Positions 20,096-34,349 of a stretch of 64,000 bases of DNA are shown here, piece after piece. Position numbers and translations under genes: made by a program. Source of the stretch: Candidatus Thorarchaeota archaeon (GTDB taxonomy: Archaea > Asgardarchaeota > Thorarchaeia > Thorarchaeales > Thorarchaeaceae); the NCBI GenBank assembly GCA_963726195.1, contig CAVSBO010000004.1, positions 320,001 through 384,000 on the forward strand, in the 5' to 3' direction. How positions within the stretch are numbered: position 1 is the first letter of the stretch; every line of letters begins with the position of its first letter. Below the pieces are notes generated by a model, which saw nothing but the letters and a program-made list of their open reading frames with translations, did no database searches and was not told the DNA's origin.

Positions 20096-21661
20096 TCATA
20101 TCGAGGGAGCACGTTTTGGTAACCAGATTCGGAAGTCTGCTCCCTGGCTAGGACAGCCAGCCACCCGATCCCGGACTCGGATTCGCCCACCGTATTTGTT
20201 AAGGATGTAAGCCGTCTGATGCAGTCCCACGCCACCAAAACGACGACCACTGTCGAACAGATATGCCTTTCTTCCATCATCGATTCCCGGACCGTTGTCA
20301 GCTACCGAGAGTTCATAGCCCTCGTCTCGCTCCAGAAGGCTTATCCAAACGTGCCTCTCTTGGAGGGGGTTGTGTACGACTGCGTTCTCGATTATATTGG
20401 TCAGCAGGACGTCTATGAACTTGCTAGCTAGTATGTTTGCGTCGCTGGAAATCGGGCCTACGTCTATTGTTGCATGTGTGAAATCTGTTCTGATATTGTT
20501 AACCGCTCTGTTGACCGCCTCTTTCAGTGATGTGGGATAAAGCGGAGTCTCACTGATGCGCTCCGTGGCCTTGGCCTTTGAAATCATCCTCGCGCATTTC
20601 TCAAGTGTTTCCTTCATCTCGTCAAGAACTGCTTGTCTTGCGTCAGGCTCCTGATGCGTTTCAAGCAGGTCAAGTCCCGCAGATATGGCTTGAAGATGAT
20701 TTCGAATGTCATGCCCCATGAGATCTAGGTATAGGTTAGCCAACTGCTCGGCTCTCTTGATCTGTGACACATCCCTGAAGCTCCACACGCGTCCACCCAG
20801 TTTCCCGCCTTGCGTCATTGGAGAAGAGTAGCATTCCATTAACCGGCCGTTCTTGAAGACAATCGTCATCAGGTCCGCTCCCGACGATGAGGTCAGTTGT
20901 TCGACTTTCTCGCTGAACTCCCCCGGCATCTCTAGTTGAAGTTGGAGCCAGCCGAAAACCTCAGACCAGTTCATCTTCATGATGGTTCCTTCTGGAATGC
21001 CCAGCATGTCCGTCAGGCGAGGATTGACGTGTTTGACTTTCCCCTCAGAATCGACGACGAGGACACCATTATCAGTAGATTCGATTGTCGCTCTAAACAG
21101 TGCCTCACTCTCACTCAAGATTTGCTCAGTCTTTCTCCTGTAGAGCGCCTCAGCGAAGACCGCAGCGACTGCCTCTATGTCTTTCGCATCTGCATTGTCA
21201 AAGCCGACATCTTTGTTGGCCAGCCCAATAACGCCAACAACTTTGTGTGCATAGGTCAGCGGCACACCCAAGAAATTATTGAGTGGTATATGGCCGTCTG
21301 GAACTCCAACTCGAGCTGGATGCAAACTGGGATGGTTCGTCAAGACTGTCTTTCCACTGAGCACGACCTGACCTAGTATCCCGTGGACCGTCATATGATT
21401 GAGTAGCTTCTTTGCCCGTTGTCTGTCAATCTTACAATCATCCAAGGCAGCAAGGTCCATAGCAAGATAGCTAAGTGTGCCATCAGGGTTCAGCTCGTTT
21501 ATTACTCCGAACTCGCTGCCGGTGATGCGCTGTGCAATCTCAAGACACCTCTCAGCCGCCTCCTGGTCAAGGGTTTGTTCGGCTGGGCTATCGGTTGAAG
21601 TAAACACCGAAGCGCTGTGAGGAGGGTCCTTGCCTTTCTTGGATTGTTCTCTGGTAGCCAT
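20096..21661 (-). CDS. GAF-PAS sensor histidine kinase
   Basis: GAF (FLGVPL..GVIGLANK), PAS, H-box GHDIRN, N-box NIIENA, DNGPGI, GVGL. Confidence 0.9.
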   Translation of the reverse strand: MATREQSKKGKDPPHSASVFTSTDSPAEQTLDQEAAERCLEIAQRITGSEFGVINELNPDGTLSYLAMDLAALDDCKIDRQRAKKLLNHMTVHGILGQVVLSGKTVLTNHPSLHPARVGVPDGHIPLNNFLGVPLTYAHKVVGVIGLANKDVGFDNADAKDIEAVAAVFAEALYRRKTEQILSESEALFRATIESTDNGVLVVDSEGKVKHVNPRLTDMLGIPEGTIMKMNWSEVFGWLQLQLEMPGEFSEKVEQLTSSSGADLMTIVFKNGRLMECYSSPMTQGGKLGGRVWSFRDVSQIKRAEQLANLYLDLMGHDIRNHLQAISAGLDLLETHQEPDARQAVLDEMKETLEKCARMISKAKATERISETPLYPTSLKEAVNRAVNNIRTDFTHATIDVGPISSDANILASKFIDVLLTNIIENAVVHNPLQERHVWISLLERDEGYELSVADNGPGIDDGRKAYLFDSGRRFGGVGLHQTAYILNKYGGRIRVRDRVAGCPSQGADFRIWLPKRAPSI

Positions 21662-21836: not shown

Positions 21837-23663
21837 TCAGGTCACTTCATCTTTGTCGAGCCATTCTCTGAGTGTGTGTGCAGTCTTCTGTGACATGCCC
21901 TCGACTTTCGCAAGCTCCTCGATACTTGCTGACTTAACCTTCTCGTAGCTGCCAAATGCCTTCAGCAAGGCGGCCCTTCTCTTTGGTCCTATCCCCGGCG
22001 CCTCCTCGAGAATCGAGCCGCTGAATCTCTTCTCCCTTAGTATGTGGTGATACCGTTGCGCAAACCGGTGTGCTTCGTCACGTATCCTCTGAATCAGTCG
22101 CAGCCCGTCCGACTCTGGTGGAAGAGCTATCCCGTTCATGTTGTCCTGAGTGAAGATGATTTCCTCCTTCTTCGCAAGAGCAGCAATCGGGAGGTATTCA
22201 AGTCCTAGCTGACCCAAAGCCTTGAGTGCCGCGCTGAGCTGACCTTTTCCCCCGTCGACCATGATCAAGTCTGGAATGATGCCGCCTCCTTCCAGCACAC
22301 CCTTGTACCTTCTGAGTATTACTTCATGCATCATGGCATAGTCGTCAGGGGTCTCCTTCACGCGCACCCTGAACATTCGGTAGTTGTGGTTCACAGGTTG
22401 GCCATTGACAAAGACTACGCATGAGCCCGTGGGGTCGGTTCCCTGTATGTTGGCGATGTCGAAGCCCTCGATGTGGAGTGGAGCGCGGGTGAGTCCTAGA
22501 GATTCCTTGAGCTGTTTGACGCCTTCGTCAACTATGTCCTCGTCACGGTCTCCGAGTACGAGTATCTTGCGCAGGCTTCTCATAGCATTTGCATTAGCCA
22601 TCTTGACGAGCTCACTCGCTTTGCCTTCGGTCGGTTGAAACAGCTTGACTGGCGTCGCCCGGTTCTGGCTCAGCCAATCGCTGAGCTGTTCCATTTCCGG
22701 AATCTCAACAGGAAGCAGAATCTCATCAGGCACTTGTGGGAGTCTGAGGTAGAACTGCTCGACAAACGAAGAGAGGACCTCCGAGTCCGTTGTGTCCATA
22801 CTGAGTTCGAAATAGAAATGGTCGGTGCCAACGAGCCGACCCGTCCTGATGACGAGCATCTCAACCAGAGCAGCCTGCTCAGTTCTAGATATCCCGAGGA
22901 CATCCCTGTCGATCTCAGCGACATCGAAGACCTTCTGTTTCCTCATGACTATCTCTATGTCTTTGAGCCGATCCCTAAGTCTGGCAGCACTTTCGAACTC
23001 TAGATTGTTGGCAGCCTTATCCATCTCTTTCTTGACTCTTTGTGTGAGCTGGGCTTCCTTTCCCTCAAGGTATAGGCACATCTCTTCGACCATGGACCTA
23101 TACTCCTCTTTTGAGACGTGCTCCTTACAGGGTCCTGCACAGCGCCCGAGGTAATAATCGGTGCACTCCCTCTTGACCGCTTCAGGGCTCTTGCACATGG
23201 CTATTGGTATGAACTTGCGGGCAGAATCCAAGAATCTGTCCAGCCGTCTTGTGCTCCCATATGGCCCGTAGTAGTTGGCGCCGTCCTTCGCGACATCTCG
23301 AGTGACCTCAAAGACAGGGTACTCCTTGTTGAGGTCGACGCGTATCCATGCGTGCCTTCGGTCGTCCTTCAGGGCGATGTTGTACTTGGGCATATGCTGC
23401 TTGATTAGAGTCGACTCAAGAATGACGGCCTCGAGTTCGGTGTTTGTCACTATGGTCTCGAGGTCGCGGGCGTGGCTCATCAGGTCCCACGTTTTTGCGT
23501 CCTGTTCCTTCCTGCTCAGGTAAGAACTGACACGTTTACGTAGAGACTTGGCTTTTCCAATGTAAATGATCTTGCCTGCTTCGTCCTTCCAGAGATACAC
23601 ACCTGGAAGCTCCGGAAGGTCTCCAACCAGTTTGGCAAGATCGGACACATCACGAATCTCCAT
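21837..23663 (-). CDS. uvrC: excinuclease ABC subunit C
   Basis: GIY-YIG (PGVY..IYIGKAKSL), UVR, RNase H-like (EGFDI, VDGGKGQ, RDEAHRFA), HhH. Confidence 0.96.
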   Translation of the reverse strand: MEIRDVSDLAKLVGDLPELPGVYLWKDEAGKIIYIGKAKSLRKRVSSYLSRKEQDAKTWDLMSHARDLETIVTNTELEAVILESTLIKQHMPKYNIALKDDRRHAWIRVDLNKEYPVFEVTRDVAKDGANYYGPYGSTRRLDRFLDSARKFIPIAMCKSPEAVKRECTDYYLGRCAGPCKEHVSKEEYRSMVEEMCLYLEGKEAQLTQRVKKEMDKAANNLEFESAARLRDRLKDIEIVMRKQKVFDVAEIDRDVLGISRTEQAALVEMLVIRTGRLVGTDHFYFELSMDTTDSEVLSSFVEQFYLRLPQVPDEILLPVEIPEMEQLSDWLSQNRATPVKLFQPTEGKASELVKMANANAMRSLRKILVLGDRDEDIVDEGVKQLKESLGLTRAPLHIEGFDIANIQGTDPTGSCVVFVNGQPVNHNYRMFRVRVKETPDDYAMMHEVILRRYKGVLEGGGIIPDLIMVDGGKGQLSAALKALGQLGLEYLPIAALAKKEEIIFTQDNMNGIALPPESDGLRLIQRIRDEAHRFAQRYHHILREKRFSGSILEEAPGIGPKRRAALLKAFGSYEKVKSASIEELAKVEGMSQKTAHTLREWLDKDEVT

Positions 23664-23698
23664 TCATCGGCTGATTTGACAATGCAGTCAGTCATAAA

Positions 23699-26579
23699 TC
23701 AGGTCTTTGGAGGAGGCAGCGTAACCACGGCTGTGTGACGAGCGTTGGGACCGTAGAGGATGCTCTTGAGATGCTGCCCGGTGAATGACTCTGCTACTGA
23801 TGAAACCTCTTCTGGCGTTCCTGCAGCTACGACCGTGCCACCTTTGACCCCTCCTTCAGGACCGAGATCGATGACCCAATCTGCGGTCTTGATAACTTCT
23901 TGGTTGTGCTCGATGACAATGACGGTGTTGCCAGCGTCCACAAGGCGATTCAAGACCCTGAGGAGCACGTCGACGTCTGATGCGGAGAGACCAGTAGTAG
24001 GCTCATCCAGTATGTAGAGCGTGGAGCCGGTGCTTCTGCGTGAGAGTTCCGCAGAAAGCTTTACTCTCTGTGCCTCTCCTCCGCTGAGCGTGGTCGCAGG
24101 CTGACCCAGTTCAACGTACCCGAGACCGACATCGGAAAGTGTTTGGAGCCTGTCAGACTACTTGTGGAATGTCTCGGAAGAATTCCAGTGCTTCCTCGAT
24201 GTTCATTCTAAGAACTTCTGTGATGTTCTTGCCTTTGTATGTCACCTCAAGGGTCTCTCTGTCAAAGCGATTACCATTGCAGACATCGCACGTGATGTAG
24301 ACATCGGTCATGAAGTGCATCTCGACACGGAGCAGTCCGCTGCCTTGGCATTTCTCACATCTGCCAGCACGCGTGTTGAAGCTGAACCTGCCAGCCGTGT
24401 AGCCCCTTGCTTTTGCCTCCGGAGTCAGAGCAAAAAGCTTGCGAATCTCATCGAACACCTTTGTGTAGGTTGCAGGGTTTGATCGAGGAGTCCGTCCAAT
24501 AGGAGACTGGTCCACGAGTATCAGGCGGTCGATGTTCTCTGTCCCGTCAATCCTGTCGTGGTCGCCGGGAGTCTCTGTGGAACCGTTCATAGTCTCAGCC
24601 AAGGCCTTGTACAGGGTCTCATGGACAAGCGTGCTCTTCCCACTGCCTGACACGCCCGTGATACAGATGAACTTCCCGAGAGGAAAGGCGACGTCGATGT
24701 TCCTCAGGTTATTCTGGCGGGCACCTCTCACGACCATTGATTTTCCGTTGCCCTCTCTTCTTGTCTTGGGCACTGGTATCTGCTTCTTGCCCGCGAGGTA
24801 GAGTGCGGTGAGAGACTTGGGGTTTGCCAGCACTTCAACAGGTGTGCCGCATGCAACCAGCTTTCCTCCGTGGACACCGGCCCCGGGACCCAAATCCACG
24901 ATGTAGTCTGCCGCATTAATGGTGTCTCGATCGTGTTCGATTACCACAACTGTGTTGCCAAGGCTTCTGAGTCGAATGAGAGTGACAAGCAGTCGAGAAA
25001 TGTCACGAGGGTGAAGTCCCACCGAGGGCTCATCGAGGCAGTACAGGACACCAGTGAGCGCGGACCCAATCTGTGTTGCCAAACGGATTCTCTGTGATTC
25101 TCCTCCCGAGAGTGTCATAGATGGTCGTTCGAGCGAAAGATAGTCAAGCCCAACTGACACTATGAATGACAAACGTGACACGATTTCCTTCAGGATTAGA
25201 CCCGCAATCTTGTGCTCTCGCTCCGTCAACTCGATGTTCTTGAAGAAGTCGAGAGCATCTTCAATCGTCATTGATGTGATGCTGTCGATTGTCTTTCCCG
25301 CGACCGTCACTGCAAGGCTTTCTGGGCGTAGTCTTTTGCCGCCGCATGTCGCACAGACCTTCCTGCTTGAATATTGGCTGATGATTTTCTCTTTGGTCTC
25401 CTCGGAAAGTCTGCCACGCAGATGGCGCTCGAATCGAGGCACCATGCCTTCCCAAGTGCGAGTGATGCTAACTGTCTGAAGTCGTCCTTTGTAGTCAACC
25501 TGTTGGTAGGAGAACTTCACTCTGAGAGGAGGACGACCCCACATTATGATATCATGAACAGAGTCGGGAAGTTCGTCCCAAGGTGTATCCAGAGAGAATT
25601 TTGCTTCTGCCGCCAGAGCCTCTAGTAGGCGATAGGGCCAAGACTGCAGAGACCCGGCCCATGGCTTGATAGCCCCGTCCGTTAGACTGAGCCTATTGTC
25701 AGGAACTATCTTGTCCGGATCGATGCTGATGGTTGCACCCAGACCGTTGCAGGCCGGACACGCACCAGCAGGAGTGTTGTATGAGAAAGCCTTGGGTTCG
25801 AGCTTCTCGTACTGAATGCCGCAGTGTGGGCACATCAGTTTCTCCGCGAACACCATGTCCTGTTCACCCTCACGTGCGATAATCACTGAACCCTGTCCAG
25901 ACTCCAGTGCGGTCTCAATGGAACCCACTAGTCTTTCCCTGCTTTTTTCACCCAGCTCAACCCTGTCAATTACCACATCGACATTGTGTTTCTTGCGTCC
26001 ATCCAGTTCTAGCCCTTCTAGTTCCTGAATCTCTCCGTCAGCTCTCACTCGCGTGAAACCGTTCTCAGTCAGATGCTGAAGACTATCCTCCAGCTTTCCT
26101 GGCTCTTCTCTGGCAACGGGAGCGAGGACCAAGATTCTCTTGCCACCATTCTCCTGAAGCAAGAGCGTGGCGGCTGACTCGGCAGTGAGCTGCTCCATTG
26201 CAGCACCACACTTGATGCAGTGAGGGACGCCTATGTTGGCAAACAGAAGGCGCAGATAGTCGTGTATCTCCGTGCTTGTTCCAACCGTGCTTCGAGGGTT
26301 CTTCGTGCCGCCTTTCTGTTCAATCGAGATTGCAGGAGGCAAGCCGGTGATTGACTCAACTCTTGGCTTGTCGAGTCGACCCAGAAACCTTCTGGCATAT
26401 GACGAAAGTGATTCGACGTACCTCCGCTGACCTTCCGCGAAGATGGTGTCAAAGACAAGACTGGACTTCCCCGAACCTGACGGACCAGTAACGACAACGA
26501 GCCTATCCCGAGGAATATCAACATCGATACCCTTGAGGTTGTGTTCAGCGGCCCCTCGAACCTTGATGTAGCCTGTCAC
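23699..26579 (-). CDS. uvrA: excinuclease ABC subunit A, second paralog (apparent frameshift near 24157)
   Basis: Two ABC ATPase modules and Zn fingers; continues [30 protein letters not shown] after removing 1 nt. Confidence 0.92.
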
Positions 26580-29500
26580 GACCTCTTCCTCCTCGTCCCG
26601 CTACTCTGGACAGCCGTCTCAGGTTTCTCTTTACGAAGTATCTCTTTGAGATACCTTCCAGTGTATGAGTTCTCGCATCCGGCCACTTCCTCCGGGGATC
26701 CCTCTGCAATGAGGTAGCCGCCTTCATCGCCGCCCTCGGGACCTAAATCTATGACCCAATCAGCTGTCTTAACCACATCAAGTTGGTGTTCCACAACGAG
26801 TACAGTGTTACCCAAGTCCACCAGTTTGTGGAGAACCTCGAGCAGCTTCTTGATGTCCGCAAAATGAAGGCCAGTAGTTGGTTCGTCGAGAAGAATCAAG
26901 GTTTGACCCGTGGCAGGTCGTGAGAGGAACTTGCTGAGCTTGATTCTCTGTGCCTCGCCACCGCTGAGTGTGGTCGCGGGCTGACCCAGCTGAACGTAAC
27001 CCATGCCGACGTCATAGAGGGTCTTGAGCTTGCGATGAATTGATGGAATGTCTGTGAAGAACTCAAGCGCTTCGTCAGTCCTCATCGCAAGGATATCAGC
27101 TATGTTCTTCCCTCTGTAACGGACCTGAAGTGTCTCCCTGTTGTATCGCCGCCCCTTGCACTCAGCGCAGGTTACTTCGACTGGCGGCAAGAACTGCATC
27201 TCTATGACTTCAACGCCAGCGCCCTTGCACTTCTCGCATCGTCCGCCTTTTACATTGAAGCTGAACCTGCCCGGCTGGTATCCTCTGATCTTTGCCTCGG
27301 GCAGATTGGAGAGGAGGTCTCTGATGTCAGAGAACAGGCTAACATAAGTCGCGGGGTTAGACCTCGGCGTGCGGCCGATGGGGCTCTGGTCAATGATGAT
27401 GACCTTGTCTCACTGCTCAGCGCCAATGATTGCATCGCATTCGCCGGGCGTGGCCGTCGCGTTGTAGAACCTTCTTGCCAACTCCCTCTGAAGGGTCTCG
27501 TCTATCAGGCTCGACTTCCCGCTGCCCGATACGCCCGTGACACATACGAAGAGTCCCAGAGGTATGCGCACGTTGATGGACTTGAGATTATGATGCCGTG
27601 CACCCTTTATCTCAATGTATCTACCATTCGGCTGTCTTCGAACAGAGGGGACGGGTATCTTGTCCTCCCCCCGAAGGTACTTGGCCGTCAATGATTTCTT
27701 CGATGCAAGTACTTCATCGACCGTTCCTGCAACAACAACTCGACCCCCTTCATCACCAGCCCCGGGTCCCAGGTCAACGAGGTAGTCAGCAGCCCTCATT
27801 GTAGACTCGTCATGTTCTACCACGACTACGGTGTTCCCTATGTCTCGCAGGCTCTTGAGCGAGTTAAGGAGTCGCAGATTATCACGTTGATGAAGCCCGA
27901 TGGAAGGCTCATCACAAACGTAGGTAACTCCCACAAGATTGGACCCAATCTGACTTGCAAGTCGTATTCTCTGTGCCTCTCCGCCAGCAAGTGACGGTGC
28001 CGGCCGATCAAGTGTCAGATAGTCGAGACCAACCTCCACAAGGAAACCTATCCTTCCCATTATCTCTTTGATGATTGGATGGGCAATCGGTTCTTCTCTC
28101 GGCGTCAAGACCACGGATTGAAAGAACTTGGAGAGATCTTTGATGGACATCCTGTTCACGTCCGTTATCGACAGGTCCCTGAACTTCACGGCAGTCGACT
28201 CGGGTCGAAGCCGCAAACCCTTGCATACTGGGCACTCGTGATCGACCATGAACTTCTCGAGCCACTGGCGTATGTAGTTTGACTTGGTCGTCTTGTAGTT
28301 GCGTTCCATCTGTGCAATCACGCCGCGAAACGGACCGAGCGTGCTGCCCTCCCATTGGGTCTTTGCCGGGTCATCTCCCCAATGCCAGTCGATTTTGATT
28401 TCCTCGTTGCCAGTTCCCAAAAGGACCTTATCCCTATCCTCTGGCTTCAGGTCTCTCCACGGGGTGCTCATCGAAAACCCGTACTTGTCAGCGACTGCTT
28501 TGATGGATGATGAGTGGGCCATCCAGTTATAGGGTGCGATGGCTCCCTGAGATATGGAGAGCGAGTCGTCTGGTATTACGAGTTTCAGGTCAATCTCCCT
28601 GATTGCTCCCAATCCTGTGCAGCTCGGACAAGCGCCGTGGGGGGTGTTCCAAGAAAACAGACGCGGCTCCATCTCTGGCAAGCTTATGCCGCAGTCAACG
28701 CACGCAAACTTCTCTGAGAGAGTAAGACTGCCGGAATCGGTGGCGATGGTCACAACTCTGTCGGCCATCTTTAGCGCGGTCTCTACGGCTTCTGAGATCC
28801 TTGCTCGCTGTGAGTTGGAGACCTTGAGCCGGTCGATGACAACTTCGATTGTGTGCTTGTAGTAACGGTCCAGTGACATGCCCTCTTCGATGTCTTTCAG
28901 TTCTCCATCGACGCGGACTCTGACAAATCCCTTCTCAAGCAGGTCGCGGAACTCTTTCCTGTACTCACCTTTCCTTTCTCTAACAATCGGTGCCATTATG
29001 GCAATGCTTGTCCCCTCTCCAAGGGCAAGAACCCTATCGACAATCTGCTGGGCAGTCTGGGGTTCGATTCTCTTGCCGCAGTTGGGACAGTGGGGAACAC
29101 CGACACGGGCGAACAGAAGCCTCAGGAAATCATAGATCTCTGTGATAGTGCCGACCGTGCTTCTCGGATTGTGACCTGCGCTCTTCTGGTCAATCGAAAT
29201 CGATGGGGATAGGCCAGACATGTAGTCCACCTTGGGCTTCTCAAGCATGCCGAGAAACTGTCGAGCGTAAGCTGAAAGCGATTCCACGAAGCGGCGCTGC
29301 CCCTCTGCGAATATCGTATCGAATACCAGACTGGACTTGCCCGAACCAGAGACACCAGTGACTACCGTCAGCTTGTTCCGAGGAATCTGCAGGTCGATGT
29401 GCTTGAGATTGTGCTCTGCAGCGCCACGAATGACGATGTCCTGTGGACCTTCCGTGTCCAGCTGAACGCTTTTGGCACGAGACCTAGACCTTGATGCCAT
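26576..29500 (-). CDS. uvrA: excinuclease ABC subunit A (in-frame TGA at 27410-27412)
   Basis: Canonical motifs; [26 protein letters not shown] reads in frame into ORF 26576-27199. Confidence 0.93.
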
Positions 29501-29503
29501 CGA

Positions 29504-31485
29504 CTACCGCCCTTCAATCTTCGTCTGCAGTTCACGAATCTGGTCTCGCAGTTCCGCAGCCTTCTCGAAATCGAGGTTCCTTGCTGCTTCCTTCATGTCT
29601 TCCTCAAGATTCACAATCAGCTCTGTGATGTTCTCCAAATCGACTAGGTCAAAGTCAGCTATCTTGGCCTGCTTAGGCTTCTTCTTCGATGGGATGCGCT
29701 CAGCAATATCGTATACGGATTTCACTATGGTCTTGGGCGTGATACCGTGTTGCTCGTTGTATCGCAGCTGGTACTCCCTGCGCCGGTTGGTCTCATTGAT
29801 TGCCGCCTGCATCGCCGCAGAGACATGATCACCGTAGAGTATGACCCGTCCGTTGACATTCCTTGCAGCTCGTCCCATTGTTTGAATGAGCGCCCATTCG
29901 CTTCTCAGGAAACCCTCCTTGTCAGCATCGAGAATGGCCACAAGGGAGACTTCTGGCAGGTCGAGACCCTCCCTTAGGAGGTTAATGCCAACGAGCACGT
30001 CGAATCTGCCAAGACGCAGGTCACGGATGATCTCTATGCGCTCAACCGTATTGATGTCCGAGTGAAGATACCTAGCCTTCACGCCGTTTTCCACTAGGTA
30101 TTCCGACAGCATCTCAGCGGTCTTTTTCGTGAGCGTAGTCACCAGCACTCGCTCATGTCTGGCCGCGGTCGTCCCTATCTCAGCCAGCAAGTCGTCGACC
30201 TGATTTCCAACGGGCTTCACTGTTATTTGCGGGTCGATCAGACCAGTAGGTCTCAGTAGCAATTCTACAATCTGACTACTTGCCTTTCTCTCATATGGCC
30301 CCGGTGTCGCGCTTGTGAAGATTGTGTGTTTCATGTAGCCCTTGAACTCATCGAACTTCAATGGACGATTGTCGTAAGTCTGACGGGAGTCTGAAACCAT
30401 AATCGACGAGGCTCTGCTTGCGAGATATGTCCCCGTGATACATCCCTTCCACCTGTGGAATGCTCATGTGGCTCTCGTCAATAATCATCAGAAAGTCTTC
30501 TGGAAAGTAATCAAGGAGACAGTAGGGCTTCTCACCCTGCTTCCTGCCGTCTATATGTCGGGAGTAGTTCTCGACACCCCCACACGATCCGGTCTGCCTG
30601 AGCATCTCCATGTCGTAGAGCGTCCGTCGGCGGAGCCGATCTGCCTCGACGAGCTTCCCCTGCTTCTTGAACCACTCAACGCGCTCTTCCATTTCGGCTT
30701 CAATCGAGTCCAAGGCGGCGATAGTTTTCTCATGGCGGGCTACGTGGTGCTTTGCAGGCCAGATGTCTATCCCGCGTTCCTCGAATATCCTGCGGGATGT
30801 CAGTGAATCAACTATTGATATTCGGTCTATCCTGTCGCCGTCGAGCTGGAGCCTTGTGGTCTCCGACTCGTAACCCGGATGAATGTCAATTACATCTCCA
30901 CGCACGCGAAATGTACCTGCTTTGAGTTCCATGTCGTTGCGCTCGTACTGCATTGACACTAGCTTTTCGAGAAGCGCGCGTCTTTCAATCTCTTGGCCCA
31001 CCTCAAGCGTCAGAGCAAGCTCGGTATACTCTTTGGGGTCGCCGAGGTTGTAGATACAGGAAACAGAAGCCACGACCACAACATCACTGCGGGTCTTGAG
31101 AGAGCGTGTGGTGGAGTTACGAAGCCTGTCTATCTCTTCGTTGATGTCCGTCTCTTTCTCGATGTACATGTCTTTGCTGGGAACATAGGCTTCTGGCATG
31201 TAGTAGTCATAGTATGAAACGAAGTACTCGACTGCGTTTTCGGGCAGGAAATTTCTGTACTCGGCTGCGAGCTGGGCTGCAAGTATCTTGTTGTGAGAGA
31301 TGACGATGGTGGGCTTTCCGTACTGAGCTATGACGTTGGCCATGACGAAGGTCTTGCCGGAGCCCGTGACACCGAGCAGAGTCTGCTCCTGAAGCCCACT
31401 GTTCAGGCCCTCCACGAGCTTCTGCAGCGCGTCGGGCTGATCTCCAGTGAGTTTGAACGGGGCAACCAGACTTGAAGTCCGCCAT
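29504..31485 (-). CDS. uvrB: excinuclease ABC subunit B (apparent frameshifts near 31470 and 30379)
   Basis: [45 protein letters not shown] (restored), GRAAR, C-terminal UVR. Confidence 0.95.
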
Positions 31486-31804
31486 CTGCTCTAGCCTCGA
31501 CCAGCGCAACGCATGCCTGATTACAAGTAAGGCTTATGGTACCTGCCACGCGCCGACTTGCCACGGCTGTTAGCCCTTCCTTGTATCTTTCTGTTTGCTC
31601 ATGTCCGCGGTGAAGAACGCGACACTAGTAGAGAGATAGTCGAAAGTATGACGGGCATGGGAGCTACGATTTGGCTGCTCGAAAAGTAGCTCTGGATAAA
31701 CGAATGGAGAGAGTTCTTCGCTCTTGTTCATTCGCGCCACTTAAATATCGGCGTGCGTGCGCTCCTTCAAGATGCAACTAGGCGACTTGACTAGGTGACT
31801 TAGC

Positions 31805-33192
31805 TTGATTGAACTTCGTGGATTACTCTACAAGACTTTGGAGAATATAGTTGGGCCGGAAAACGTATCCGACAAGGATTTTGACCTTGAGGCCTACACT
31901 CGGGACTTGAGTTCAGCTCCAGAAAAGAGAGCGTCGTTTGTTGTCCGACCCAGTACAACAGAGCAGGTTTCAACCATCCTTAGAGTGGCAAACCGGTATA
32001 GGATACCGGTCTATATCAGAGGTGGTGGTACCTCGCACTGGGGAGAATGGCTTCCGGTGCAGGGTGGAATACTGATGGATATGACCTCATTGAACCAAAT
32101 TGTGGAGATCGATGAGAGGGAATTGACCGCAACAGTTCAAGGCGGCTGTACCTGGTTCAAGCTTAGAAATGAGCTCAAGAAGCACGGTCTATCATGCGAG
32201 CCGAGAGAAATGGGTGGTCGCGCCATAACGGTTGGAGCTAGCATAACGAAAAGGGGTTCAGGTTCCATAGGAGTCACCAAGCGAGGAAGATTAGGATGGG
32301 ACGTTTTGGGTTTAGAGGTTGTCTTGCCTACAGGCGAGATAGTAAAGACAGCCGCCGTCGAGTATCTTGGACTCAGACCTTTCGACAGTGGGGGAATAGG
32401 GCCAAACTTGACCCAGTTCTTCATCGGTTCAGGGGGGAGCTGGGAGTGATTACGGAGGTCACCCTGAGAGTCACGCCAATTCCATTGGATGCCTACCTGT
32501 ACTTCGATTTCCCGGGGCTTGATAATGTGGAGAAAGTCGGAGATGAAGTGACCAGACCTGTGGGCGATGAGTTGGTCTTTCATCTGGAGTACACCAAAGG
32601 TGGATGTCTGTCAACTGGAGCGGGGGCAGAATGCAGGGTCTGGACGTATGGTTACACCGAAAAGGAACTTGAGTTTCGTTGCGAGAGGATAAGAGACATC
32701 TGTGAGAAAGCCAGCGGGAAGGAAGGCGATCCCAAGAAAACAGAGGTGAGTCATCATCGCGATCATGGCTATCTATGGGGTGGTCTGACTGACTACTTCG
32801 AGCCGGGCCCAATCGACTATGTCGGCGGATATTGTCCAATCTACTCGCTAAACAAATTCTTTGAAGTTTGGGAAGAGGTTGTGATCAAGAAACACGGTTG
32901 GATTCCTCCTCCAAAGGCCGGCTTCGGGGGATGGTTGATTCCCAGAGGCTGGGGAGTTTTCGGGGAATTTCGTTATATCGACCCGGATGAGCGCCCTCGT
33001 GTCAGAGAAACCGCCGAGGAGCTCACGAAGAGATGGTTTGAGCTTGGTTTCATGCCTTGGCGGTTGGGCGATCACCTGTTCCTAGCGAAATACTCGATTC
33101 CGAAACTTGGCGGCTGGTACGAGCTTGTCAAGCGGTTGAAGAAAGAGCTGGATCCAAACGACATTCTGAATCCCGGGAAAATGATCCGATAA
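31805..33192 (+). CDS. FAD-binding oxidoreductase, GlcD/D-lactate dehydrogenase-like (apparent frameshift near 32435)
   Basis: RGGGT, GLEVVLPTG, FIGSGG-ELGVITE across the shift, LDPNDILNPGK. Confidence 0.85.
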
Positions 33193-33206
33193 ACGGAGGC
33201 AAAGGA

Positions 33207-34349
33207 ATGCAGATTTCTAGTTATTATAACCAAATTTGGAAGTGTGGCAGATGTGGTTACTGTGGGGGAGGCTATCTCGAAGACCGTTGTCCCGCTCGAT
33301 TCTTGGGCCGATTTGAATCCTCGACTGCCAGAGGGAAGCTTCTCATCGCAAGAGCCCTCATGAATGGGGGATTGGGCCCCTCCGCTGAGCTCGCGAATAG
33401 GGTCTATGAATGTACACTCTGTGGATCTTGCGAAACCATCTGCGATAGAATCATCCATTTGGACCTGGTGGATATCCTAGAAGCCCTTAGAGCCGACTTG
33501 GTGGACGCCGGGCTTGGACCAATGCCTAGGCACAAGGAAATACTGGATTGGATCAAGAAAGAACACAACCCGTACATGGAAAAACATGAGGACAGACTGA
33601 AATGGATGCCTCAAGGTAGGAATGTTTCGGGAAGAAGCAAGATACTGTATTTCACGGGATGCACAACTCCATACAGACAGCCTGAGATTTCAAGGGCTTC
33701 TATGCAAGTGATGGAAGCCGCCGGAGTTGAGGCTCTGATTGCTCCCAAAGAATGGTGCTGCGGTTCGATTGCCTTCAGGACCGGTGCAAGAGATGCGGGA
33801 TTGGACCTTGCGAAGCATAACGTTGAATTGTTTAAGTCTCTGGGAGTAAACACCATTGTAACCCATTGTCCGGGATGCTATAGAACGCTCAAGCTGGACT
33901 ATCCCAAGCTTCTGGGAGACATGCCGTGGAAGGTTCTTCACTTCTCGGAGTTTGTTGAGGACCTATTAGACAAAGGCAAGCTTCAGTTCGATGGTCAAAT
34001 CGACGCGAAAGTCACTTACCATGATCCATGCCATCTAGGGAGACACGCAGGTGTGTACGATCCCCCTAGAAGAGTCCTCGAGTCGATACCCGGGTTGCAG
34101 CTTGTAGAGATGGAACGTACACGTGAGGAATCGTGGTGCTGCGGTGCTGGTGGAGGTGTGAAGTCTGCATTCCCTGATTCAGCACTGAAGGTCGCGAATG
34201 AAAGAATCAAGGAGGCCGAGCGGACCGGAGCACAATATCTCGTTACAACTTGTCCATTCTGCAGACAAAACTTGAAGGATTCATCTGATTCGTCGGGTGG
34301 ACATCTACAGGTTTGTGATTTGATGGAGTTGCTGGCGCGCGTGACTTGA
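33207..34349 (+). CDS. Fe-S oxidoreductase with CCG domains (GlcF/HdrD-like)
   Basis: CGRCGYC, CTLCGSC..C, WCCG twice, YHDPCHLGR, TCPFC. Confidence 0.9.
   Translation: MQISSYYNQIWKCGRCGYCGGGYLEDRCPARFLGRFESSTARGKLLIARALMNGGLGPSAELANRVYECTLCGSCETICDRIIHLDLVDILEALRADLVDAGLGPMPRHKEILDWIKKEHNPYMEKHEDRLKWMPQGRNVSGRSKILYFTGCTTPYRQPEISRASMQVMEAAGVEALIAPKEWCCGSIAFRTGARDAGLDLAKHNVELFKSLGVNTIVTHCPGCYRTLKLDYPKLLGDMPWKVLHFSEFVEDLLDKGKLQFDGQIDAKVTYHDPCHLGRHAGVYDPPRRVLESIPGLQLVEMERTREESWCCGAGGGVKSAFPDSALKVANERIKEAERTGAQYLVTTCPFCRQNLKDSSDSSGGHLQVCDLMELLARVT

Follow-up and report, generated by a model that had tools for sequence, protein, structure and literature searches.

Tandem class I UvrA paralogs in the uvrBC operon of Thorarchaeota archaea, and their possible assembly into a UvrA·UvrA' heterodimer

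UvrA is a homodimeric damage sensor. The 64,000-nucleotide (nt) stretch of DNA analysed here, referred to as the window, comes from a Thorarchaeota metagenome-assembled genome and contains a bacterial-type nucleotide excision repair operon with two class I UvrA paralogs, A (gene uvrA) and A' (gene uvrA'). The four genes are organized head to tail on the minus strand as uvrB-uvrA-uvrA'-uvrC (window positions 21837–31485; Table 1), and the operon encodes the only UvrB and UvrC of the genome, each being single-copy in a whole-genome tblastn search. The uvrA stop codon overlaps the uvrA' start codon within a GTGA tetranucleotide, preceded by a GAGGAGG run that we infer to have a Shine-Dalgarno-like function. 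A first-pass annotation, made from the letters of the window alone, had reported this gene order, the GTGA overlap and an archaeal host, and all three are borne out here. We tentatively propose, on sequence comparisons, that A and A' form an A·A' heterodimer that would replace the UvrA2 homodimer, its subunits being produced in about equal amounts by coupled translation and contacting each other through their ATP-binding-I domains. We regard this as the most likely reading because the two genes are coupled, the genome has one UvrB, the asymmetry between the paralogs is conserved and a covalent precedent exists in fused double UvrAs. No description of a paired UvrA arrangement in Asgard archaea was found in the searched literature, which does mention Asgard UvrABC.

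The pair is a stable feature of the family. The nearest named records to the host are Candidatus Thorarchaeota OWC5 (hereafter G002, with an A' 93% identical to that of the window) and OWC3. An A' ortholog with an intact frame of ~950–1020 amino acids (aa) and 64–93% identity is present in 17 of the 18 other family genomes, and a uvrA gene (~50% identical to A') adjoins it wherever the contig permits; the sole exception, G001 (85% complete), is without both uvrA and uvrA'. The first-pass annotation had suggested surveying relatives for the B-A-A'-C order, and among the 16 family genomes from which the operon was fetched this order is found wherever the contig permits, with an intact tandem pair in the 15 fetched in full (the uvrA of G003 is cut by a contig end). 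The A/A' junction is a 4-nt overlap (ATGA or GTGA) in 14 of the 16; of the other two operons, one has a 1-nt overlap and the other a 15-nt gap. A sister family genome, G019, also shows B-A-A' as far as its contig end. Elsewhere among the sampled Asgard genomes, UvrA is encoded once, except in G022, which has a fused double UvrA of 1,916 aa.

By profile and domain content, both copies are canonical class I UvrA. The G002 orthologs (A 92% and A' 93% identical), scored in place of the interrupted window copies, reach 1422 and 1372 bits, respectively, against NF001503/TIGR00630 (cut-off 1147), covering profile positions 4–942 of 943, and 714 and 697 bits against the double UvrA model NF001885 (cut-off 3054), so that neither is of the double type. 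The UvrB-binding domain (PF17760) scores 124 bits in A and 92 bits in A', and the insertion domain (PF17755) 97 and 94 bits, respectively. A' can be aligned with G. stearothermophilus UvrA (2R6F) over its full extent (residues 5–947), and the Walker A and B motifs, Q-loops, signatures, H-loops and all zinc CxxC cysteines are kept in both paralogs (16 A and 16 A' sequences), in agreement with the earlier statement that each copy retains the ATPase modules, zinc fingers, and UvrB-binding and insertion regions. Compared with class I UvrA homodimers (G. stearothermophilus 2R6F/3UWX, T. maritima 3PIH, M. tuberculosis 3ZQJ, 9GXK series), with which both proteins align over their whole length, A and A' share the two ABC ATPase modules, three zinc modules, the UvrB-binding and insertion domains and the uvrB/uvrC neighbours; the difference is that one gene encodes UvrA there, whereas here two genes (~50% identical) stand stop-to-start. 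A' further departs from these proteins by fixed changes in its UvrB-binding domain, its distal D-loop and dimer-contact position 82, and the family-level A by a Ser-to-Ala change in signature I.

The two paralogs are asymmetric in sequence, and in a consistent manner. A retains GRKGEY and R.sEA, whereas in A' the GRKGEY motif is lost in a fixed way, being replaced by [RE][DE]E.GK[HL] in the family and by NYTDFNE in the sister family, RLADS is changed to RL[VI]GS, the distal D-loop that follows the distal Walker B reads GLSASD in place of GLHFxD, and Walker A-I is GPSGSGKS throughout the family. In the window the corresponding pairs are VRERKGEY in A versus AREEPGKL in A', and RARISEA versus RERLVGS. 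The three substitutions singled out by the first-pass annotation (RERKGEY/REEPGKL, RISEA/RLVGS and GLH/GLS) therefore read as claimed, and the asymmetry it ascribed to A' is substantiated by fixed changes in the UvrB-binding domain and distal D-loop across the family. Signature I of the family-level A is LAGGE, whereas the sister-family A is fully canonical (LSGGE); most single-copy UvrAs likewise have LSGGE, and LAGGE occurs in a few others. The signature I serine corresponds to Ser490, to which a catalytic role in the distal site is assigned (PMC12796330). A and A' are ~50% identical overall, 38% in the UvrB-binding domain and 25% in the insertion domain. Per-domain comparison of orthologs, in which A is 72% and A' 69% identical, indicates purifying selection on each domain of either copy.

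The first-pass annotation had also suggested that one side is weakened for UvrB loading, a point on which the present data raise doubt. The UvrB-binding domain has a mean ortholog identity of 65% in A' and 70% in A, a ratio no worse than that of the whole protein, and because of these figures the A' domain appears to have diverged and then been held constant rather than to be drifting. A predicted fold of A' residues 126–252 with UvrB residues 156–264 (domain 2), each partner supplied as a 16-row alignment, weakly supports contact, with a score of 0.49 against 0.00 for the best of three controls. In calibration, 58 of 80 solved complexes passed the mark, as did 2 of 110 mismatched pairs; at scores of 0.60 or below, only 7 of the 80 solved complexes but both of the passing mismatches did so. 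The A'–UvrB runs share at least 97% of contacts, with a partner pLDDT (predicted local distance difference test) of at least 82, and the score may reflect mere likeness, as a similar complex has already been solved (3FPN/3UWX). Weakened UvrB loading by A' is thus doubtful, and an altered or ordered UvrB interaction is possible.

In the UvrA dimer, contact is made via the ATP-binding-I domains by R54, Y55, S58, F66, G80–I85, L507, M508 and V510, with homotypic Y55–Y55 and F66–F66 pairs (PMC12796330). When these published contacts are mapped onto the thorarchaeal proteins, the contact segments are nearly invariant inside each paralog and paralog-specific at contact positions: A has Phe and A' Tyr at position 55, followed by Ser versus Pro at 82, Ser versus Ala at 84, and Val versus Thr at 508. 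Positions 506 and 511 also differ between the two. In sequence, the contact domain is not continuous. The GLPPAIS and ARRFLGRL signatures of A' are already present in the sister family, whose A remains canonical. This pattern fits a specialised interface and is likewise compatible with homodimers.

Fused double UvrAs (~1,800–1,950 aa; NF001885 type, including the Asgard protein of G022) provide the covalent precedent, as they hold two class I-like modules in a fixed 1:1 ratio. Nearly all of the public examples P0121–P0270 keep RKGEY in one module only, the N-terminal one in one class and the C-terminal one in another, and the RKGEY-less module frequently shares the GPSG of A' in Walker A-I, with either order being seen. 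They differ from A/A' in being a single polypeptide, whereas two open reading frames (ORFs) with a TGA/GTG overlap are present here, and in that their third Walker A is often degenerate, whereas all four Walker A motifs are intact in A plus A'. In many of P0121–P0270, no more than three Walker A motifs are canonical. Such proteins are very common: the best 150 matches of the exhaustive representative search were almost only fused double UvrAs, with no single-copy outgroups.

Phylogenetic analysis ties A to these proteins robustly. Thorarchaeal A groups with the N-halves of one fused class, including the Asgard one, with a support of 0.985 in FastTree, 96/99 in the careful IQ-TREE run under LG+G4, and 92 in the quick version of the site-heterogeneous tree (LG+C20). 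A' is monophyletic on a long stem, and its neighbours vary by method: its sister is one fused N-half in FastTree, it joins the fused C-halves under LG+G4 (94 in the quick run, 67/82 in the careful one), and it joins single-copy UvrAs, including other Asgard ones, rather than the C-halves under LG+C20 (88). In an approximately unbiased (AU) test, a tree that unites A and A' in a single clade is not rejected (p = 0.21), and a lineage-specific duplication with fast early divergence is a possible origin of the pair. The suggestion that the pair is an unfused counterpart of the double UvrA accordingly stands in part: A goes with the N-halves and the canonical/degenerate pattern is the same, whereas the affinity of A' for the C-halves depends on the model, a dependence that the present analysis brings out.

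Further members of the UvrA family occur outside the operon. A third UvrA-family gene lies ~80 kb upstream, beyond the window (G000:C4:235786-240641), and is split in this assembly by two frameshifts, one of them near a CCAGACTG word (its position is not pinned in the G002 alignment); an intact ortholog is found at L061:9854-14710:-. In G002 this gene encodes a fused double UvrA of 1,619 aa, and it is also present in G001, G003, G008, G017 and G029. Its N module keeps the UvrB-binding domain and is without the insertion domain, and its C module has the insertion domain and is without the UvrB-binding domain. A further full-length UvrA paralog is encoded in two genomes of the family (G008:C5:72317-74719 and G017:C50:3700-6102; frames of 979 and 952 aa), 42–44% identical to A'; in G008 it lies ~10 kb from the fused double UvrA.

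How an A·A' heterodimer might operate can be sketched from the homodimer. Homodimeric UvrA is asymmetric on damaged DNA, with one recognition and one support insertion domain and sequential binding of UvrB, and recent structures do not yet explain how the damaged strand, or the one UvrB that remains, is selected (PMC11985968). In the proposed scheme, coupled translation of uvrA and uvrA' would yield roughly equal amounts of A and A', which would assemble via their ATP-binding-I domains into a heterodimer in place of the homodimer. The asymmetry that the homodimer acquires only on damaged DNA would then be built into A·A', with the insertion domain of one protomer gripping the lesion and the other yielding, and with one side bound by UvrB ahead of the other. 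In such a dimer the canonical protomer would be A. A' would be the specialised one, its UvrB-binding domain, its insertion domain and the D-loop of its distal site all having diverged, and both sides would probably still touch UvrB. In a stricter form, which we put forward with rather more reserve, Thorarchaeota would have an obligate UvrA·UvrA' heterodimer in which sequence, and not a choice made on the DNA, would set which protomer holds the lesion, which one yields and in what order UvrB is loaded. A lineage that retains two distinct, coupled UvrA subunits, both fully equipped, alongside one UvrB allows either protomer to be mutated on its own. If true, an obligate heterodimer would represent a damage sensor naturally divided into two separable subunits, and A·A' could show directly how the symmetric UvrA2B2 search complex gives way to the one-UvrB, strand-specific pre-incision complex.

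Several observations weigh against such a heterodimer. Adjacency and overlap of the two genes are also compatible with two co-regulated, separate homodimers; F66 and nearly all other interface residues are kept in both paralogs, so that each could homodimerise; the link of A' to the fused C-halves is model-dependent, being lost in FastTree and under LG+C20, and the similarity of A' to C-halves is not above that of A; and the window copies are interrupted, the intactness of the strain's genes resting on contigs of other runs and not on its own raw reads. A and A' may instead form two separate homodimers that share UvrB and UvrC, A2 being the housekeeping sensor of global repair and A'2 serving another lesion range or coupling, for example to transcription; in that case, which we consider possible if somewhat doubtful, the overlap would serve co-expression only. 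Such an arrangement is in line with the passage of both copies over the UvrA equivalog model at full length, with their complete ATPase and zinc motifs and conserved UvrB-binding domains, with the weak fold support for contact between A' and UvrB domain 2, with the sameness of most dimer-contact residues, and with the description of known paralogs such as class II UvrA2 as homodimers (PMC3167621). However, the strict overlapped tandem across two families is tighter than co-regulation needs, the paralog-specific substitutions at contact positions 55, 82, 84 and 508 are fixed, and the pairing of a canonical with a degenerate module is covalently enforced in many fused double UvrAs. On this balance we retain the A·A' heterodimer as the favoured, still tentative, reading.

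An unlikely alternative is that A' works independently of UvrB, as an accessory UvrA-like factor that just happens to lie in the operon and acts, for example, in tolerance to DNA toxins or drugs or in DNA scanning, roles that have been suggested for class II UvrA2 and the resistance proteins related to it. The class II UvrA2 of D. radiodurans (2VF7) and the UvrA-like resistance proteins resemble A' in being a second UvrA-family paralog per genome, and A' has indeed lost GRKGEY and the acidic residue of RLADS, carries GLS in its distal D-loop, and has in its insertion domain the part most diverged from A. Class II UvrA2, however, is without the UvrB-binding domain (PMC3167621), whereas both A and A' carry PF17760 and that of A' is complete and under purifying selection; A' also scores above the class I equivalog cut-off and is embedded in the uvrBC operon, always between uvrA and uvrC.

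As given in the window, uvrB, uvrA and uvrA' are interrupted. The first-pass annotation had described two full-length uvrA genes of ~970 and ~960 aa; these lengths are close to the corrected ones (Table 1), but both genes are broken in the window and the breaks went unmentioned. To assess the breaks, we compared contigs of public sequencing runs (Logan) over window positions 23600–31600, with X1 and X2 from peat and X3 and X4 from freshwater sediment, representing two studies; adapter remnants at loose contig ends indicate short-read libraries. The contigs of X1, X2 and X4 show 27411 C>A and 27412 A>G, which restores CTA in uvrA, and G002 also has Leu at this codon. The extra base at 24157 is missing from the contigs of X1, X2 and X4, that at 30379 from those of all four runs, and that at 31470 from those of X1 and X2. 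The pieces from X3 and X4 otherwise differ from the window by 0–1 positions, and the CTA-codon piece has one further difference. Likewise, in an operon alignment against the congeneric G002, the three frameshifts are single extra bases of the window, and no further indels occur within genes. All four genes are intact in the living population.

The lesions share one sequence context. The corrected contexts are AAG^CTGG, CAG^CTTA and TAG^CTGA, plus CAGCTAGAC, all four on AGCT; with ~279 AGCT sites in the window, it is not by chance that each of the three insertions falls precisely at the centre of this word. Across the assembly (19 contigs, 2.9 Mb, estimated completeness 88.9%), 186 ORFs were compared with their G002 orthologs, and 39 of them have a changed frame or a stop inside the alignment, although some of these stops are upstream-of-start artefacts; 23 of 27 frameshift junctions are +1 insertions in this assembly, many at AGCT or AGNCT. 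Some junctions lie at GAGAC-like words. AGCT is not depleted as a word in the genome, so only some AGCT sites are hit by the error. When ORF pairs that would be joined by removal of the central base of AGNCT were sought genome-wide, adjacent genes dominated and the noise was too high to show enrichment. The four lesions are therefore consensus errors at AGCT words, probably those of a long-read-type assembly at a modified motif, with the platform and the methylation both inferred. They resemble known methylation-motif consensus errors of long-read assemblies in consisting of single-base insertions and a two-base miscall at a short palindrome, in being spread genome-wide and in being missing from short-read contigs; they differ in that a minority of AGCT sites is affected.

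Because about one-fifth of the orthologous ORFs are broken genome-wide, the lesions are assembly errors rather than decay, and broken genes in this assembly should not be taken as gene decay. The first-pass annotation had named a true pseudogene among the two copies as a finding that would contradict it; the raw window gives that appearance, but it arises from the assembly. We discarded the pseudogene reading, as the X1–X4 contigs are without every lesion that they cover and the same type of lesion occurs genome-wide. Recoding of the TGA in uvrA as selenocysteine or Trp was also rejected, given CTA in the other runs and Leu in G002. That the operon is truly decaying in this strain through fixed nonsense and frameshift mutations is highly improbable: four lesions do fall in three genes within 9.6 kb while none is seen in ~28 neighbouring orthologs, but every covered lesion is missing from the contigs of four independent short-read runs, two of which otherwise match the window, all lesions lie at one 4-mer, lesions of this kind affect about one-fifth of the compared ORFs genome-wide, and relatives at 93% identity are intact. 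This contig-level evidence for artefactual breaks, the per-domain constraint figures and the mapping onto published dimer contacts are new to the present analysis.

Table 1. Genes, junction elements and sequence lesions of the uvrB-uvrA-uvrA'-uvrC operon (window coordinates)
Feature	Start	End	Strand	Description
uvrB	29504	31485	-	659 aa after removal of two spurious bases; ATG at 31485, TAG at 29504-29506
uvrA (A)	26576	29500	-	974 aa after correction; canonical class I UvrA by translation and Pfam
uvrA' (A')	23699	26579	-	959 aa after removal of one spurious base; diverged class I UvrA
uvrC	21837	23663	-	608 aa, intact; Pfam GIY-YIG, UVR, UvrC RNaseH domains and HhH
GTGA overlap	26576	26579	-	uvrA stop TGA and uvrA' start GTG share 4 nt
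GAGGAGG	26588	26594	-	Shine-Dalgarno-like purine run within the uvrA 3' end, 9-15 nt upstream of the uvrA' start
False stop TGA in uvrA	27410	27412	-	In frame as given (AEQ*DKV); true codon CTA (Leu), CAGCTAGAC read as CAGTGAGAC; AGCT site
Spurious base in uvrA'	24157	24157	-	Window GTAGTCTGAC, true GTAGCTGAC, giving ...IPQVADRLQTL; AGCT site
Spurious base in uvrB	30379	30379	-	Window TCAGACTTAC, true TCAGCTTAC; AGCT site
Spurious base in uvrB	31470	31470	-	Window AAGTCTGG, true AAGCTGG; AGCT site, 15 nt past the ATG

The genes of the operon are closely spaced, with 3 nt between the end of uvrB and the uvrA ATG and 35 nt between the uvrA' stop and the uvrC start. The two uvrB fragments in the window together carry the Pfam domains UvrB_inter, ResIII, Helicase_C, UvrB and UVR, and UvrB is 92–93% identical to that of G002. 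The locus was absent from the public RNA runs searched. A sensor histidine kinase with GAF-PAS-HATPase_c architecture is encoded downstream of uvrC on the same strand, 175 nt away (window 20096–21661, minus strand), and G002 has no ortholog of it at the corresponding position. On the other side of the operon, window positions 31805–34349 (plus strand) hold three overlapping same-strand ORFs, the last of which encodes a CCG/4Fe-4S (HdrD/GlpC-like) protein; the overlaps among them may be further assembly frameshifts.

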